NCBI GenBank assembly: GCA_024672275.1
Contig: GCA_024672275.1_4536.1
DNA from: a phage
Strand: one strand, 5' to 3'
DNA length: 64,000 bases
Position 1 is the first letter of the stretch. Each line of letters opens with the position of its first letter. This document shows, one piece after another, positions 2,727 through 33,164 of this stretch. The translations under genes and the position numbers were made by a program. The notes beneath the pieces were generated by a model, which worked only from the letters and a program-made list of their open reading frames with translations, searched no databases and had not been told where the DNA came from.

Positions 2727-3000
2727 AAAATTTCTCCTCTCCTAAAGACATGTTGACATGAAATGCACGATATGTAAATTCGTTGTCCGTTGTGTTTGAA
2801 TAAAACTCAAATTGAACAACACCATCTTGAGAAGACAGATACATGCCAATTTGAACTGTTCCTTCTGGTACCAGGTAAGCATACTCTGGACGTAGTGTTA
2901 CATTGTAAAAATAAAGTTCCCCAACACCCATTTCATCCCAAGCTTCCCAAGCGGTAACGAAGTTACTTTCAAAACTTGTTACTGATCTGAACTCTGCCAT
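2710..3000 (-). CDS. hypothetical protein
   Basis: 96-aa ORF in array. Confidence 0.45.
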   Translation of the reverse strand: MAEFRSVTSFESNFVTAWEAWDEMGVGELYFYNVTLRPEYAYLVPEGTVQIGMYLSSQDGVVQFEFYSNTTDNEFTYRAFHVNMSLGEEKFYDDQV

Positions 3001-3491
3001 AAAACCTCCTCAATCTTGTAGTTTGACTCCATCTCCAACACATTTCCACGAACGTCTCTCCGAAGAAAGGCATAAGCTTTATTAGGTATTGTAGACTCAT
3101 ATTTAACCATATCTGGCACAGCAAAAGATACTACTACTCCTGCTGGGCTTCTGTCAAGAGCCTTATTAATATTTCTAAGGATATCGTTAGCCAAGATTTC
3201 TGCCAATTCTCCAAGAACAGTTTCGGTTATATCTTTATATCCCATTAAGTATTTGTTGATATCTTTCATCTCTGTATTGTTCAGAGTATAGTCCAAAGGA
3301 TAGAAATTCAAAGCGGAGTCACTTTTATGTGTCCACATGAAATGCACCCGATCAGAGCAGAATCGTAACCCTCTATGAAGAATATCTTCTACAACAGGGA
3401 GAATTTCTTTTGTCACATCATTAACCATGTTGTAATCTAAGATTTCTGCCAAGTTTGTTCTTTGTTCACCACGTTTACGTTTAGGAATCAC
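2979..3491 (-). CDS. hypothetical protein
   Basis: 170-aa ORF, overlaps neighbours by a few codons. Confidence 0.5.
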   Translation of the reverse strand: MIPKRKRGEQRTNLAEILDYNMVNDVTKEILPVVEDILHRGLRFCSDRVHFMWTHKSDSALNFYPLDYTLNNTEMKDINKYLMGYKDITETVLGELAEILANDILRNINKALDRSPAGVVVSFAVPDMVKYESTIPNKAYAFLRRDVRGNVLEMESNYKIEEVLWQSSDQ

Positions 3492-4062
3492 TTGTTATTG
3501 CCCTCATTACCAAAGGTCGTAGAAAATCGTAAATCTCTTGTTTTGTTTTCCCACGAATGTTTAAACAAGGAACATTATTGGCTTTAGCTATCTTCCAAGC
3601 CGTAGCTGTTCCACCTTTTGCATCTCCATGTTTATCAGTATTAGCACAAGCCAACAAGAAACAGGATGGAGCAGGATTTTCCAAATCTCTACCTAACACT
3701 TGATGCACATTACGTTGGTGCAATTTTCTAGCACCCTGCTTAAGCTTTTCATAGGCTGGGTGAACATCTTTGATCCATTGCACAGAGATAGCATAGTTCA
3801 TTGTATCTGGTTTTGCAAGAACAATAACATCCCCTGGAATCTGATTACCTTTGAAATTTTCCCAAGGAACATAAATCTCCTTGTTAGTAGGATTTTCAGA
3901 CTCTTGGACACCTGTTTCAAAAGCAGAATCACTACCCTCTGCCTTCCCAGACCTTAATTTAAACCCAAGGTTTGAAAGCCATTTCCCTATGCCTACCATC
4001 AAAGCCCACTCTTCTTCGGATATATCTCTACTTCCAACTCCCGTATAGAACAGTTCTGCCAT
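3481..4062 (-). CDS. DprA/Smf-like Rossmann-fold (SLOG-type) nucleotide-binding protein
   Basis: YTGVGSR ... RSGKAEGSDSAFETGV resembles the GxGxR and RSGxAxGxDxxA motifs of DprA/SLOG domains; start set to ATG after GAGGTG. Confidence 0.45.
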   Translation of the reverse strand: MAELFYTGVGSRDISEEEWALMVGIGKWLSNLGFKLRSGKAEGSDSAFETGVQESENPTNKEIYVPWENFKGNQIPGDVIVLAKPDTMNYAISVQWIKDVHPAYEKLKQGARKLHQRNVHQVLGRDLENPAPSCFLLACANTDKHGDAKGGTATAWKIAKANNVPCLNIRGKTKQEIYDFLRPLVMRAITSDS

Positions 4063-4069
4063 AATCACC

Positions 4070-4378
4070 TCAACAAGTAATTTCAAAAGGTGTATAGGGT
4101 TCCGTATTTCTCATGATCCAAGGACTGCTAGGATTGCTCGGATCATAAGGACCAAAAGGTTTTATGGTAGGTTGTGTTTCTTTCTTCTGAATCTCTTCAA
4201 AAATACGACGAAGTTCAGAATATTCTTGATCCACCATAAGATTCGGTGCATCTGATTCTACAGCTTGCAGGTTATCTTCCTTAAGAACAATCTCACGAAC
4301 AAGATTAACATCTTCTGTTTCTAAGATAACTTCTTTACGGATATTGCCTACACTTTGAATAATTGTAACCTTATACAT
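4070..4378 (-). CDS. hypothetical protein
   Basis: 102-aa ORF. Confidence 0.5.
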   Translation of the reverse strand: MYKVTIIQSVGNIRKEVILETEDVNLVREIVLKEDNLQAVESDAPNLMVDQEYSELRRIFEEIQKKETQPTIKPFGPYDPSNPSSPWIMRNTEPYTPFEITC

Positions 4379-5121
4379 TAATCCTCCTCAAGAGTTGAAT
4401 AAAATTGAAGACCACCGTCCATATCGAAATAAGCAAATGTTAAGTTATTATTGAACACAGATCCAGTATCCATATAAACACGATTCGCATTGATAATAGG
4501 TGTTTTTACATAAGAGTGTCCATGAAACACATAATCCACACCCATCACAACAGGAAGTTTCATTCCCTCTTTAGCACAATCCACCATATCTCTGTCCCAC
4601 ATAAGTGCTTCAGCAAAACGGTTTTCCTGTGTTTTTGTCATCTTCGAAGTGTATTCTGGAATATCTGTTACAGGGAGATATTCCAAAGAAGACGGATACC
4701 CACCATGAATAAACGCAAGTTTCATGCCTCTGTAGTTAACAATGAGAACAACAGGTAAATCTTCTGTCATCATTGCTAAGGCTGTAGCTCCTTCTTCACC
4801 ACATTCTTCAAGGACCGTATATCCTCCATTTTGATACCAACACTCGAAGTAGCTACGATCTCCTTCCAGCATACCTTTAATCATCATGTCTTCATGATTT
4901 CCACGAATAGCGTAGCGATTGTGTTTACGAGTAAATTCTAAAACACAACGAAAGTTTTGCTTTCCACGGTCAGTAAGATCTCCTAAAGATACAACTACAT
5001 CTGTATCTCGGATACCTAACTTTGCCTTTCCTTTTTCATACAAATTATAACAACCGTGTAGATCTCCAATTATAAAAAGATCTTGATCGCTTTTAACAGT
5101 AATTTCTCTGTGTATGATCAC
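4378..5121 (-). CDS. serine/threonine protein phosphatase (PPP family, lambda-phosphatase-like)
   Basis: GDLHG, GDLTDRG and GNHE motifs in canonical order. Confidence 0.8.
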   Translation of the reverse strand: MIIHREITVKSDQDLFIIGDLHGCYNLYEKGKAKLGIRDTDVVVSLGDLTDRGKQNFRCVLEFTRKHNRYAIRGNHEDMMIKGMLEGDRSYFECWYQNGGYTVLEECGEEGATALAMMTEDLPVVLIVNYRGMKLAFIHGGYPSSLEYLPVTDIPEYTSKMTKTQENRFAEALMWDRDMVDCAKEGMKLPVVMGVDYVFHGHSYVKTPIINANRVYMDTGSVFNNNLTFAYFDMDGGLQFYSTLEED

Positions 5122-5447
5122 TTATCCTCCTCAAAATCTAAGAAAATAAAAATATTCACCTTTCCTTCAATCTCTTGTTCTAAAACAAGATCGGCAAATT
5201 CTGCATAAGCTTTCTCTTCAACTTTTTCAATATGTTCTGCGGCATCTTTAAAAGGTGTATCCCCATCCACCTTTACTAATAAGAAAAGAGATCGCATTTC
5301 GACGCTTTTACTGTTACGAGGAAGGAAATCTACAGCTTCAACAATTCTCCAACCCAAATAGCCAGGGGTTTTATGAATCTCCCCTAAATACTTTTCTAAG
5401 ATTTTACGACCCTCGTCGATAAGGGCTTGTTCTGTAGTAATTTCCAT
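5118..5447 (-). CDS. hypothetical protein
   Basis: 109-aa ORF. Confidence 0.5.
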   Translation of the reverse strand: MEITTEQALIDEGRKILEKYLGEIHKTPGYLGWRIVEAVDFLPRNSKSVEMRSLFLLVKVDGDTPFKDAAEHIEKVEEKAYAEFADLVLEQEIEGKVNIFIFLDFEEDK

Positions 5448-5457
5448 TCCTTCCTCC

Positions 5458-6048
5458 TCAAATTATTAACGAAACCGCATGACTAAATCTTGGTTCAGAT
5501 ATAACCTCTGCTACAGTCACATATGTATCGTGCAGCCAAAAAGATTCTACTCTACAAACACAAATACCGTTGATAATGAAATCTACACAGGATTTATTAT
5601 TTTCGCACACTTGTTGACTATAAACAACCCCTAAAGAGTCATAAAGTGATCTCACTGTTGCTACCATCTCATCTGTTTCGTCTTCCTGTGAAACAAAGAA
5701 AACGAATACAGACAAGTTATTAGCGAAAGTATTGCTATTCTCTACTTCAACCGACTTACAAGGTAAAAAGGAGTAATATTTACCGTTAGGTATCAATTTC
5801 GCCTCAACCTGGTTAAGTATGCTTTGAGATGGTTTTGTTACATAAAAAAGATTTTCTGTTGGGTTTTCAACATTGCTCCTTACTATGCAACGAGTGGGGT
5901 TCGAAGGATCAAAAACATGATCGAAATCGACACACACAGGTAAGTTAACAACTTTAAACTTTTTGCTAAGAATGCTTACTGCTGTAAAAATCAAACCAGC
6001 ATTTATTTTGCCAGTGAAAGTTGAACGCATAACTACTCCTCGGATCAT
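5458..6048 (-). CDS. hypothetical protein
   Basis: 196-aa ORF. Confidence 0.5.
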   Translation of the reverse strand: MIRGVVMRSTFTGKINAGLIFTAVSILSKKFKVVNLPVCVDFDHVFDPSNPTRCIVRSNVENPTENLFYVTKPSQSILNQVEAKLIPNGKYYSFLPCKSVEVENSNTFANNLSVFVFFVSQEDETDEMVATVRSLYDSLGVVYSQQVCENNKSCVDFIINGICVCRVESFWLHDTYVTVAEVISEPRFSHAVSLII

Positions 6049-7682: not shown

Positions 7683-7703
7683 AAGAAATGCCCCCGAAGG
7701 GGC
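7683..7703 (-). terminator. intergenic hairpin (gcccc-ttcg-ggggc), possible terminator/attenuator
   Basis: Perfect 5-bp GC stem with tetraloop downstream of HslV-like stop; tail only moderately U-rich. Confidence 0.4.
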
Positions 7704-7709
7704 AGTTTG

Positions 7710-8402
7710 TTAAATAGCGGTTCCTTCGAAATCCGCCACATTTACGAGATTAATATTTTCAGATTTAGAAGTCAAGTTGTTTTCTGCAACAGATTTTTCT
7801 TCAGTATCCGCCTCGTTACCTGCCACGTTACGAGGTTCTTCTTCACCGTAGGGATTACCGAATTTCAAAAGATTGATCAATTCTTCTTTGGAGAAGTTTT
7901 CTAAATCATCATCTGTTAATTCAATAATCTCGTCTTGTTCTTCAATAAATGTTTCACCACCAGAAAAAGCATCTCGCTTTTTAGCTACTTCCATAGCCTG
8001 TTCTGGTGTTGCCCCTGCATCAAGAGCAGCTAAAGCAAAATCTGACCCACTCCCTACTGCATAATATTCTTCATCAATCGGATATGCACGTGTTGGGTTG
8101 TTACCTTCGTGCAGGAAAATACGTCCGTCTGGATGAACAACAAGTGCAATAAACTCTTCATCTTCTTTATCTGGATCAGAGTGAATCATCAAACCAGGGA
8201 CAGCATCACGTGCTGCTTCGCACTGTAGATTTTGTTCAAACCATTGAAAGAAAGAAAGCACGGAGGTCAGACGACCAGCACCACCTACAAGGTAATCTCC
8301 AATTTTTCGGACCTTTTTGAAATTAATAGAATCTACACGTCCACCAAAAGTTACCTTACCGTCACTCAAAATCTTATTTTTGGTTGCAATAATTGTCGTC
8401 AC
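7710..8402 (-). CDS. HslV-like (proteasome beta-type, Ntn-hydrolase) peptidase
   Basis: N-terminal MTTIIA (Thr right after Met), FKKVRKI, VGGAGRLTSVLSF and YAVGSGSDFALAAL match HslV blocks from memory; acidic C-terminal tail. Confidence 0.65.
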   Translation of the reverse strand: MTTIIATKNKILSDGKVTFGGRVDSINFKKVRKIGDYLVGGAGRLTSVLSFFQWFEQNLQCEAARDAVPGLMIHSDPDKEDEEFIALVVHPDGRIFLHEGNNPTRAYPIDEEYYAVGSGSDFALAALDAGATPEQAMEVAKKRDAFSGGETFIEEQDEIIELTDDDLENFSKEELINLLKFGNPYGEEEPRNVAGNEADTEEKSVAENNLTSKSENINLVNVADFEGTAI

Positions 8403-22544: not shown

Positions 22545-23423
22545 TTATTTAAGGATTGTTGCTTTGGTTAAATCTTCCATCAGACCTCGAATCTCATTGA
22601 AGCACAGAAGGACCGAAGCTTCAATACTACCTTCTTCGTCTGCAAAATATTTCGGAAAACGTAGTTTAGAAAGTTTAAACTCTTTATCCACTACAAAATC
22701 TACAACACCGTCATATTCAAGACCGATTGCAACAACATCTTTACCATCTTCTTTTAGTTCGACAGCTTTAGACTCGTATAGGGATTCTTTACTCCAAACA
22801 ACAACGCCCTCGCTATCCTCCATTTTGATATAATTTCCGAGAGTAATACGATCTGCTTCATGATTCTCCAGCAATTCACCAAAACCTTTTACAATAGCTT
22901 CTTCGTGCACACTAAAACCTACCGAAGGGAAAGTCCCCAGAACGGAACGGAGGAAAGAAGTAATCTCTTCTGCAACCTTTTTACTTCCATTAAGAACATA
23001 AAGAAGATTCGTAGTTTTATCCAAGACAACATAGTTAAAGAAATCTTCAGGTTCTGTTTCAGGCAATAGTGCAAATTCAATATCTTCCTTCATTGCTTTG
23101 ACTACTTCTTTATCGACATAAAACTCTTTACCTTCGCTCTCCATGTCCTGACGCATTTCTTCTAGACGTTCATTCAGAATACGTTTAACTTTCTTTTTAT
23201 CTACCTTCTTCACAGATTGACCTACATTAAGTAGTTCAAGATCTGAAAACTCTTTTACAAATTTAGAGTCATCTTCGAAACGAACAAGACCGATAGTGTG
23301 TGACTGGGAGCCTTCTGCTGTTACAAATTCCAGAGGAATATCTGTAATGCTGTTAAGGGATGCTACAGAAGCATTGTCACCAACAACCATAGGCAGAGCG
23401 GATTTAAAAGATTTTACAAACAT
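22545..23423 (-). CDS. hypothetical protein
   Basis: 292-aa ORF. Confidence 0.55.
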   Translation of the reverse strand: MFVKSFKSALPMVVGDNASVASLNSITDIPLEFVTAEGSQSHTIGLVRFEDDSKFVKEFSDLELLNVGQSVKKVDKKKVKRILNERLEEMRQDMESEGKEFYVDKEVVKAMKEDIEFALLPETEPEDFFNYVVLDKTTNLLYVLNGSKKVAEEITSFLRSVLGTFPSVGFSVHEEAIVKGFGELLENHEADRITLGNYIKMEDSEGVVVWSKESLYESKAVELKEDGKDVVAIGLEYDGVVDFVVDKEFKLSKLRFPKYFADEEGSIEASVLLCFNEIRGLMEDLTKATILK

Positions 23424-32479: not shown

Positions 32480-32734
32480 TCTAGCCTCCTAAACGCGTCT
32501 CTGACGCACTTTTTATATATAAGATGATAAATCACCTTACCTAGTAAGTGAACTTGCTCTACGAGCCTCTTATGAAGCTTATGTTATAGGATATACTATT
32601 GCTACCTGTTTAAGCAAGGTTTTTGCACACAGAAAATAATTTTTAATAAAACTCTTGACTTTTGTGTTCGAAGTATGCTACCCTAGAAATCTATTAACGA
32701 GCGCAGCGAGTTAAGGTTTTAGGTTGTTGATGTA

Positions 32735-32766
32735 GTACTCTGTACTCAAGTACTGTACTCCGTACT
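32735..32766. repeat. five closely spaced GTACT direct repeats
   Basis: GTACT at 32735, 32742, 32750, 32755, 32762; related (A)GTACAG motifs recur at 32838-32868 and 32940-32950. Confidence 0.7.
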
Positions 32767-32770
32767 AGAT

Positions 32771-32820
32771 TAATAATTATTAAATATTAATAATTATTAA
32801 ATATTAATAATAAATAATTA
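32771..32820. repeat. AT-only 17-bp tandem repeat (taataattattaaatat x2 plus partial), ends in palindrome ttagatctaa
   Basis: Exact duplication 32771-32787 and 32788-32804. Confidence 0.8.
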
Positions 32821-32917
32821 TTAGATCTAACAAACAGGTACAGTGTATCAGAACTGGTACGTACAGATCAACTTCTATCAATTAAAAAATAAAATAATAA
32901 ATTATTATAAATAATAC

Positions 32918-32946
32918 TTGATCTATAGATCAGTATGAAGTACAGT
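32918..32946 (+). promoter_or_regulatory. candidate rightward promoter (TTGATC-17-TACAGT) overlapping 14-bp perfect palindrome TGATCTATAGATCA
   Basis: Palindrome 32919-32932 contains two GATC sites; strong RBS and ATG at 32979 downstream. Confidence 0.4.
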
Positions 32947-32978
32947 ACGTAACATCTTAACAAGAAGGGAGGTGTGCA

Positions 32979-33164
32979 ATGATTAGTGAGAATCCGTGCA
33001 AATGGCATCATGTGCCTATTAAAGATTGTATGTCTTGTAATCCACGTTCTATTTATAACATTGCATCTTATGATGATGACAATGTGTTAGACGATGATGA
33101 AGGCTGGGAGGATTTAGATTGGACTGGTTATGAAACCAAAAAGGATAAAATTATTCCTAGTTGA
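32979..33164 (+). CDS. small Cys-containing protein
   Basis: 61 aa, GGGAGGTG RBS. Confidence 0.5.
   Translation: MISENPCKWHHVPIKDCMSCNPRSIYNIASYDDDNVLDDDEGWEDLDWTGYETKKDKIIPS

Follow-up and report, generated by a model that had tools for sequence, protein, structure and literature searches.

Viral members of the SLOG (Smf/DprA-LOG) superfamily have been surveyed by comparative genomics (Iyer, Burroughs, Anantharaman and Aravind, 2022; PMC9503650), and because they are fused to, or encoded near, Macro, NADAR and DUF4326 domains they were predicted to process ADP-ribose (ADPr) derivatives and proposed to sense or degrade signals of the cyclic ADP-ribose (cADPR) type. In a 2021 paper of the same group on jumbo phages, phage copies of DprA/Smf were regarded as extra single-stranded DNA (ssDNA)-binding proteins (PMC7824862). 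Both phage NADAR (T4 gp30.3, AdfN) and phage Macro (PhiKZ gp104, AdfM) remove ADP-ribose from DNA and so overcome DarTG1 and DarTG2 (PMC11825919, PMC13309987; also PMC11543638, PMC11125620); a SLOG partner is mentioned in none of these four papers. Here, we describe a stand-alone SLOG gene of the family PHROG 768 in a stretch of 64,000 nucleotides of phage DNA (GenBank assembly GCA_024672275.1, contig GCA_024672275.1_4536.1; the whole stretch is referred to as the window), which stems from a phAPEC8-like Escherichia coli myovirus (Phapecoctavirus, Stephanstirmvirinae).

Several related proteins have been described individually. In bacteria, DprA mediates recombination by loading RecA on incoming ssDNA, and in Helicobacter pylori DprA (HpDprA) the three arginines R52, R143 and R170 are required for ssDNA binding. 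ShosA, the antitoxin of the ShosTA phage defence (PDB 8ZVA, 9VZO), is a genuine homologue of DprA, matching E. coli Smf with E = 8e-17; it has a SAM domain and binds ssDNA and RecA (PMC12961424). In a knockout screen of the Seuratvirus DruSM1, deletion of ORF83 ('Smf/DprA') cut infectivity on a host carrying Avs type III (10.1101/2024.04.14.589459). ORF83 has been modelled as a LOG-like protein that binds adenosine monophosphate (AMP) with R89, N90, T112 and D114, and the same preprint notes that amoeba viruses have fusions to DUF4326 and that the residues for DprA dimerisation and RecA binding are missing from ORF83 (10.1101/2025.06.06.658234).

The SLOG open reading frame (ORF) is a real gene of 193 codons on the minus strand, extending from an ATG (4062-4060) to a TAA (3483-3481). 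A program-made ORF list contained a longer version starting at TTG 4086; however, the spacing of a Shine-Dalgarno-like GAGGTG, which overlaps the end of the preceding gene, and the position of the TGA of that gene (4072-4070) favour ATG 4062 and thus 3481-4062 as the right coordinates. The next gene downstream starts with a GTG at 3491 and overlaps the SLOG stop codon. As the genes on both sides abut or overlap, the ORF represents one cistron in a dense series of minus-strand genes, composed of small ORFs and genes of nucleotide metabolism. Positions 3000-5200 of the window are 99.2% identical to Escherichia phage anhysbys, and the SLOG protein has counterparts of 100% identity among the annotated proteins of the phages EP57 and nepoznato, the latter copy carrying the GenBank label 'DprA-like DNA recombination-mediator protein'. 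The gene is therefore not new.

An earlier note on this DNA had pointed to two motifs as resembling nucleotide-binding motifs of DprA and related SLOG domains. Both are present in the 193-amino acid (aa) protein, YTGVGSR at residues 6-12 and RSGKAEGSDSAFETGV at residues 37-52, and the resemblance goes far beyond chance, each motif containing residues that are invariant among the aligned sequences of a large family. The PHROG 768 profile, itself labelled 'DprA-like DNA recombination-mediator protein', matched residues 2-182 of the ORF on positions 2-180 of 191 with E = 2e-62. By tblastn, homologues were encoded in 1443 of 50,697 phage records, including T4-like, T5-like, N4-like, PAK_P-like and jumbo phages of Klebsiella, Pseudomonas, Escherichia, Aeromonas, Vibrio and Acinetobacter, and a profile search of 1.84 billion representatives yielded 5980 clusters (50% identity) at E <= 1e-3, 2143 of them at E <= 1e-30. 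A scan of 185,579 species genomes with a single narrow peptide pattern, by which 'nearly phage-only' is a lower-bound statement, returned only six loci, all on metagenome-assembled contigs. PHROG 768 is thus very large and almost exclusively phage-borne.

An alignment of 40 family sequences served as the basis for calling invariant residues and for an AlphaFold2 model (mean predicted local distance difference test 94.9, predicted template modelling score 0.90). A single alpha/beta domain fills the whole model, displaying the three-layer Rossmannoid fold with a central parallel sheet that characterises the SLOG superfamily, rather than the unrelated fold that the earlier note had named as the outcome that would refute its reading. 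The phosphate-holding loops GxGSR, RSGxAxGxD and GGTxTA are invariant across the 40 sequences. When the model was compared with known structures, the highest score was obtained for the molybdenum cofactor carrier protein 2IZ5 (16.0), followed by DprA (3MAJ, 15.6; 4LJK, 15.2), TM1055 (15.0), LOG-type phosphoribohydrolases (14.3 and 14.1), ShosA 8ZVA (13.2), YpsA 2NX2 (12.6) and the ThsA SLOG with 3'cADPR, 7UXS (11.0). The last of these, the sensor of type I Thoeris, is structurally more distant; in the host it forms one protein with a SIR2 effector, while the phage protein is free-standing.

The family has four conserved loops, GxGSR, RSGxAxGxD, HxRNxxQ and GGTxTA, which occupy the positions where other SLOGs hold a phosphoribosyl group (for an overview see Table 1). 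In the second of these, R37, S38, G39, A41, G43, D45 and G51 are invariant. In the third, R117-N118 align with the DprA motif 'FPxRNRII' (R143 of HpDprA) and also with R89-N90 of the anti-Avs3 SLOG ORF83. The fourth is equivalent in position to SGSxxT of DprA and PGGxGTxxE of LOG. By analogy with other SLOGs, the conserved pocket formed by R12, R37-D45, R117/N118 and G150-T154 is likely to hold a phosphoribosyl group. The isoelectric point of the family (median about 7.8) has no power to separate the possible explanations.

The strongest functional evidence for PHROG 768 comes from domain fusions, which were surveyed among the 150 best representatives and the protein P0119 from the first homologue search. 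NADAR was found as N-terminal partner (P0138, P0210), as was DUF4326 (P0197, P0262), and MazG as C-terminal partner (P0247). A1S_2505/phrog_2072 was likewise attached at the C-terminus (P0119, P0191, P0258); a PDB sequence search with this domain found nothing, and structure prediction then resolved it as a Macro fold, which provides the first annotation of another uncharacterised phage family. Two proteins of about 1480 aa (P0121, P0122) carry the PHROG 768 SLOG, a YAcAr SLOG and an LDcluster4 SLOG in tandem, and end with NADAR at the C-terminus; in this they are reminiscent of the polyvalent anti-defence proteins known from some phages. The family motifs were retained in every fusion protein read. 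A further N-terminal partner, phrog_9995 (P0193, P0216), occurs in two distinct clusters as a domain of about 125 aa (residues 1-125) with the motif 'YEVSSKGDKRFSA...', for which neither a Pfam nor a PDB sequence match was found.

These fusions, together with the conserved pocket, favour the view that the PHROG 768 SLOG binds or processes a phosphoribosyl ligand of host immunity and plays a counter-defence role in the phage NAD+/ADP-ribose network, to which we assign a probability of roughly one half. The protein would bind, and possibly cleave, a phosphoribosyl-containing ligand produced in the course of host immunity; candidates are a soluble ADP-ribose derivative, a cyclic ADPR-type signal or ADP-ribose on single-stranded phage DNA. 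It would be a counter-defence factor that acts beside the Macro, NADAR-type and DUF4326 proteins of the phage, and its part could be that of an enzyme, a sponge or a subunit for targeting. This agrees with the proposal of Iyer et al. (2022), and PHROG 768 fits the pattern described there in its Macro, NADAR and DUF4326 links, its mostly stand-alone genes and its enrichment in larger phages. Of the two functions considered in the earlier note, the nucleotide-targeting counter-defence is favoured by the context of NADAR, Macro-fold, DUF4326 and MazG fusions, whereas a recombination accessory function is disfavoured by missed DprA thresholds and absent DprA domains, as detailed below.

The genomic neighbourhoods were analysed in 80 IMG/VR loci and additional GenBank loci, in which ORFs were called and clustered, giving 36 lineages that share less than 60% SLOG identity. 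PhoH was the most frequent neighbour (9/36 lineages), followed by an HslV-like peptidase, the large subunit of ribonucleotide reductase (RNR) and a Pfam Macro protein (5/36 each), a phosphoribosyl pyrophosphate (PRPP)-synthetase-like protein (4/36) and a Nampt-like protein (3/36); ThyX, glutaredoxin and dCMP deaminase also recurred. The Macro gene lies on the same strand at a median of 438 bp upstream of the SLOG gene and scores 22.2 bits against a Pfam cut-off of 22. As the loci are loosely organised early/middle modules, this evidence is weaker than that of the fusions. In the related phage anhysbys, gp038 (22875-23348), labelled 'phosphatase', is a 40-48% identical member of the neighbourhood Macro family, and gp051 (32676-33044), labelled 'ribonucleotide reductase NrdA-like', is a DUF4326 protein (tblastn, 4e-13), so that its label is probably wrong. 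In addition, anhysbys encodes a Sir2 (gp163; positions 3647-4462 of the locus), indicating that several parts of the NAD+/ADPr network are present but dispersed in this phage type. The association with Macro, NADAR or DUF4326 was therefore found for the family by fusion and neighbourhood, and for the ORF described here by co-occurrence in anhysbys but not within the window.

Several points weigh against a role in the ADP-ribose network. No catalytic residue can be assigned, and the closest motifs by sequence are those of DprA, an ssDNA binder, two of whose three key ssDNA-binding arginines appear to be invariant in the family. The fusions are a minority, only 14 of the 150 representatives exceeding 250 aa, and the gene stands alone here, with no Macro, NADAR, DUF4326, Nampt or A1S_2505 gene in the 64-kb window. 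The neighbourhood alone does not single out ADP-ribose, since the commonest neighbours are generic nucleotide-metabolism genes; the five to six Macro/Nampt lineages are perhaps not independent, several being Pseudomonas phages; and the co-occurrence with Macro is not exclusive, as this Macro family is present in 2935 phage records.

A first alternative is that the protein is a minimal DprA-like ssDNA binder, which, in the course of replication and recombination, would shield the phage ssDNA or act as loader of a recombinase (RecA of the host or a UvsX-type protein of the phage) and, in the fusions, tether NADAR or Macro to ssDNA. PF02481 was indeed the only SLOG family matched by any member; however, the match was confined to the first ~45 residues in every case, and the cut-off of 29.6 bits was reached neither by the ORF (12.7 bits) nor by its best relative (29.2 bits). 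For TIGR00732, no match was obtained with the ORF, and relatives scored 13.8-17.5 bits, the cut-off being 191. Searching the PDB with the ORF sequence gave chance matches only (selenide water dikinase, E = 0.94), a profile search of the PDB returned DprA chains at E = 0.018-1.4 over about 45 residues, and hhalign comparisons to the single sequences of E. coli Smf and CAjan gp82 were uninformative. When five DprA/ShosA Rossmann-domain sequences were rebuilt from PDB alignments and compared with the family alignment by hhalign, the probabilities were 81-84%, with 81% for a local alignment over the N-terminal 46 columns, confident only there; outside motifs 1 and 2, no part of the sequence matches PF02481 or the DprA chains of the PDB. 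At low confidence, the global alignment additionally paired GSR (R12), SGxAxGxD, the proline of YP (P85), 'FPxRNRII' with H115-x-R117-N118, and SGS with G151-T152. R12 and R117, both invariant, align with R52 and R143 of HpDprA, the alignment being of low confidence past residue 53, and in the same low-confidence region the position of the third arginine, R170, is a lysine in the ORF and variable across the family.

Further support for such an ssDNA binder is provided by genes for DNA ligase, helicases and exonuclease that adjoin the SLOG gene in some phages, by the earlier proposal for jumbo phages (PMC7824862), and by the consideration that an ssDNA-binding partner would be sensible because NADAR and DarG-type Macro act on ssDNA. 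Nevertheless, the invariant E87 and P94 of DprA are not retained, nor apparently is the third arginine. The DprA architecture of N-terminal SAM-like and Rossmann domains, often with a C-terminal winged helix, is also absent, as the protein is a single 193-aa domain compared to the 374 aa of E. coli Smf. Conversely, an extra helix, the invariant W67, H115 and Q121 and the nearly invariant H101 are specific to PHROG 768, and DprA lacks the P-W after strand 3 that PHROG 768 shares with YAcAr SLOGs (FPAPW). Fusions to ADP-ribose-processing domains are untypical of DprA, the fusion to MazG and the Nampt and PRPP-synthetase neighbours represent small-molecule enzymes, and the family is spread over N4-like, T5-like and T4-like phages with no constant recombinase partner seen. 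The related ORF83 was likewise reported to lack the DprA dimerisation and RecA-binding residues. Also in distribution, the phage-borne PHROG 768 differs from the bacterial DprA. Of all curated families, DprA is the one closest in sequence to the SLOG ORF, yet the ORF is not a member, and it is probably not a DprA of the canonical type, which loads RecA in transformation; a minimal ssDNA-binding role appears unlikely. Mimicry of ShosA was considered and dropped as a leading idea, as the PADLOC ShosA model matched only at E = 0.02 (residues 9-47 of the ORF).

A tentative variant, which we also regard as rather unlikely, is that PHROG 768 recognises ADP-ribosylated ssDNA by a DprA-like groove and has an anti-DarT role, in that it cleaves the base-ribose N-glycosidic bond or delivers Macro, NADAR or DUF4326 to the lesion. 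If true, the resemblance to DprA in sequence and the fusions to ADP-ribose enzymes would have a common explanation, and a cleaving PHROG 768 protein would constitute a third class of DNA ADP-ribosyl hydrolases beside Macro/AdfM and NADAR/AdfN.

A LOG-like nucleotide phosphoribohydrolase, which would cleave the base from AMP, another (deoxy)nucleoside monophosphate or nicotinamide mononucleotide and so alter the nucleotide or NAD pools without being directly connected to immunity, appears quite improbable. Genes for RNR, PhoH, glutaredoxin, ThyX and dCMP deaminase surround the SLOG gene in many phages and in this window, the MazG fusion would suit such an enzyme, ORF83 has been modelled with AMP, and in the T5-like Vibrio phage AG74 (2165-4961) the SLOG gene gp55 is situated between the split NAD-dependent DNA ligase genes gp57 and gp54. 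However, no match to PF03641 (Lysine_decarbox/LOG) was obtained at E <= 1, and the catalytic glutamate of PGGxGTxxE is absent, as the ORF reads KGGTATAWK and the family has K, N or M at this position, none of them acidic. Both features separate the protein from the LOG and type-II LOG comparators Cg1261 (PDB 5WQ3) and TT1465 (PDB 1WEK), and fusions to NADAR, Macro-fold and DUF4326 domains would be unexpected for a housekeeping nucleosidase.

The YAcAr/YspA SLOGs (PF10686, phrog_289), among them DruSM1 ORF83 and CAjan gp82, are like PHROG 768 small stand-alone phage proteins. They share its motif order of GGR/GSR, (R)xGxAxGxD, P-W after strand 3, RN and GG.GT and are connected by fusions to the same network of partners, namely DUF4326, the A1S_2505 Macro fold and NADAR, but comprise about 130 aa compared to the 193 aa of the SLOG ORF. 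The ORF had no match to PF10686, for which CAjan gp82 scores 66.3 bits, and hhalign of the family alignment to gp82 yielded a probability of 11% over 17 columns. The identification of ORF83 as a PHROG 768 member was tried and rejected, as its residue numbering fits CAjan gp82, a 130-aa YAcAr protein with R89, N90, T112 and D114 exactly where ORF83 has them. As gp82 is a YAcAr SLOG and the ORF has no YAcAr match, ORF83 belongs to a sister SLOG family, and the anti-Avs3 phenotype was measured for ORF83 only, not for PHROG 768. The side-by-side occurrence of both domains in P0121 and P0122 suggests that their roles are non-redundant.

A non-enzymatic sponge that mimics the ThsA SLOG sensor and sequesters 3'cADPR-type signals, so that the host effector stays off, would be in line with the small stand-alone protein, similar to known sponges, with the lack of an obvious catalytic acid and with the argument of Iyer et al. 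(PMC9503650), but is highly unlikely, as the strict invariance of H115, R117, N118, Q121, W67 and D45 across diverse hosts suits an enzyme or a universal ligand better than a mimic directed at one system.

The surroundings of the gene in the window are summarised in Table 1. The gene is immediately flanked by unknown genes and a NinI-like Ser/Thr phosphatase gene, and terminator-like hairpins flank the minus-strand block in which it is located. Promoter-like sites showed no enrichment in the window (35 compared to 28.4 +/- 4.8). About 3.6 kb further upstream, an HslV-family peptidase-like gene is found. The pairing of this gene with the SLOG gene within a few kb also occurs in the 5/36 lineages mentioned above and in Pseudomonas phage PS24, and in phage CAjan an HslV-like gene accompanies the sister YAcAr SLOG (gp82/gp86); this proximity may reflect a functional link or merely a common early-region layout. 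Three adjacent small acidic ORFs have similar C-terminal tails ('WISSSSMC', 'VWHSSSC' and 'NWHPSSLSC') and look like a tandem paralogous family. In PHROG, the 196-aa ORF is labelled 'histidyl tRNA synthetase' (phrog_4806), and it has a paralogue in a related genome (anhysbys gp046, both VOG5541); as it is far below synthetase size and without a Pfam domain, this label is probably spurious.

Table 1. Position of the SLOG gene, its conserved motifs and surrounding features in the window (residue numbers refer to the 193-aa SLOG protein).
Feature	Position	Strand	Remarks
SLOG stand-alone protein, PHROG 768	3481..4062	minus	193 aa; ORF reading
Shine-Dalgarno-like GAGGTG	4066..4071	minus	read from sequence; 3 nt before the SLOG ATG
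Motif 1, YTGVGSR, residues 6-12	4027..4047	minus	Gly-rich loop after strand 1; G10, R12 invariant; hhalign to DprA
Motif 2, RSGKAEGSDSAFETGV, residues 37-52	3907..3954	minus	strand 2, loop and helix; corresponds to DprA SGLAxGID
Strand 3 and P-W, EIYVPW, residues 62-67	3862..3879	minus	W67 invariant; E62, I63, Y64, P66 nearly invariant
Motif 3, HQRNVHQVLG, residues 115-124	3691..3720	minus	H115, R117, N118, Q121, G124 invariant
Motif 4, GGTATA, residues 150-155	3598..3615	minus	predicted phosphate-binding loop; G150, G151, T152, T154, A155 invariant
Terminator-like GC-rich hairpins with T-runs	1716-1733 and 7689-7704	both	bidirectional; flank the block holding the SLOG gene
Promoter-like site TTGACA...TAAACT	1710-1682		after hairpin 1716-1733
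HslV-family peptidase-like gene	7710-8402	minus
Small acidic ORF	1742-2014	minus	90 aa
Small acidic ORF	2024-2284	minus	86 aa
Small acidic ORF	2529-2726	minus	65 aa
313-aa ORF	710-1651	minus	Pfam DUF7277 and DUF7275 (E = 1e-75), phrog_2141
196-aa ORF	5458-6048	minus	phrog_4806

Taken by itself, the SLOG gene is known, and its family is catalogued but uncharacterised and of a kind already discussed in comparative genomics; as the gene is already annotated and such viral SLOGs have been treated before, its novelty is low. However, although the gene is ordinary, PHROG 768 ranks among the larger of the functionally uncharacterised protein families of phages, and its routine automatic label as a 'DNA recombination mediator' is probably misleading. 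If derivatives of ADP-ribose or ADP-ribosylated DNA are indeed what the family acts on in concert with Macro, NADAR and DUF4326 proteins, it would represent a widespread player in the evasion of NAD+-based immunity such as DarTG, Thoeris and SIR2-type systems, and would be relevant to host-range prediction for therapeutic phages.

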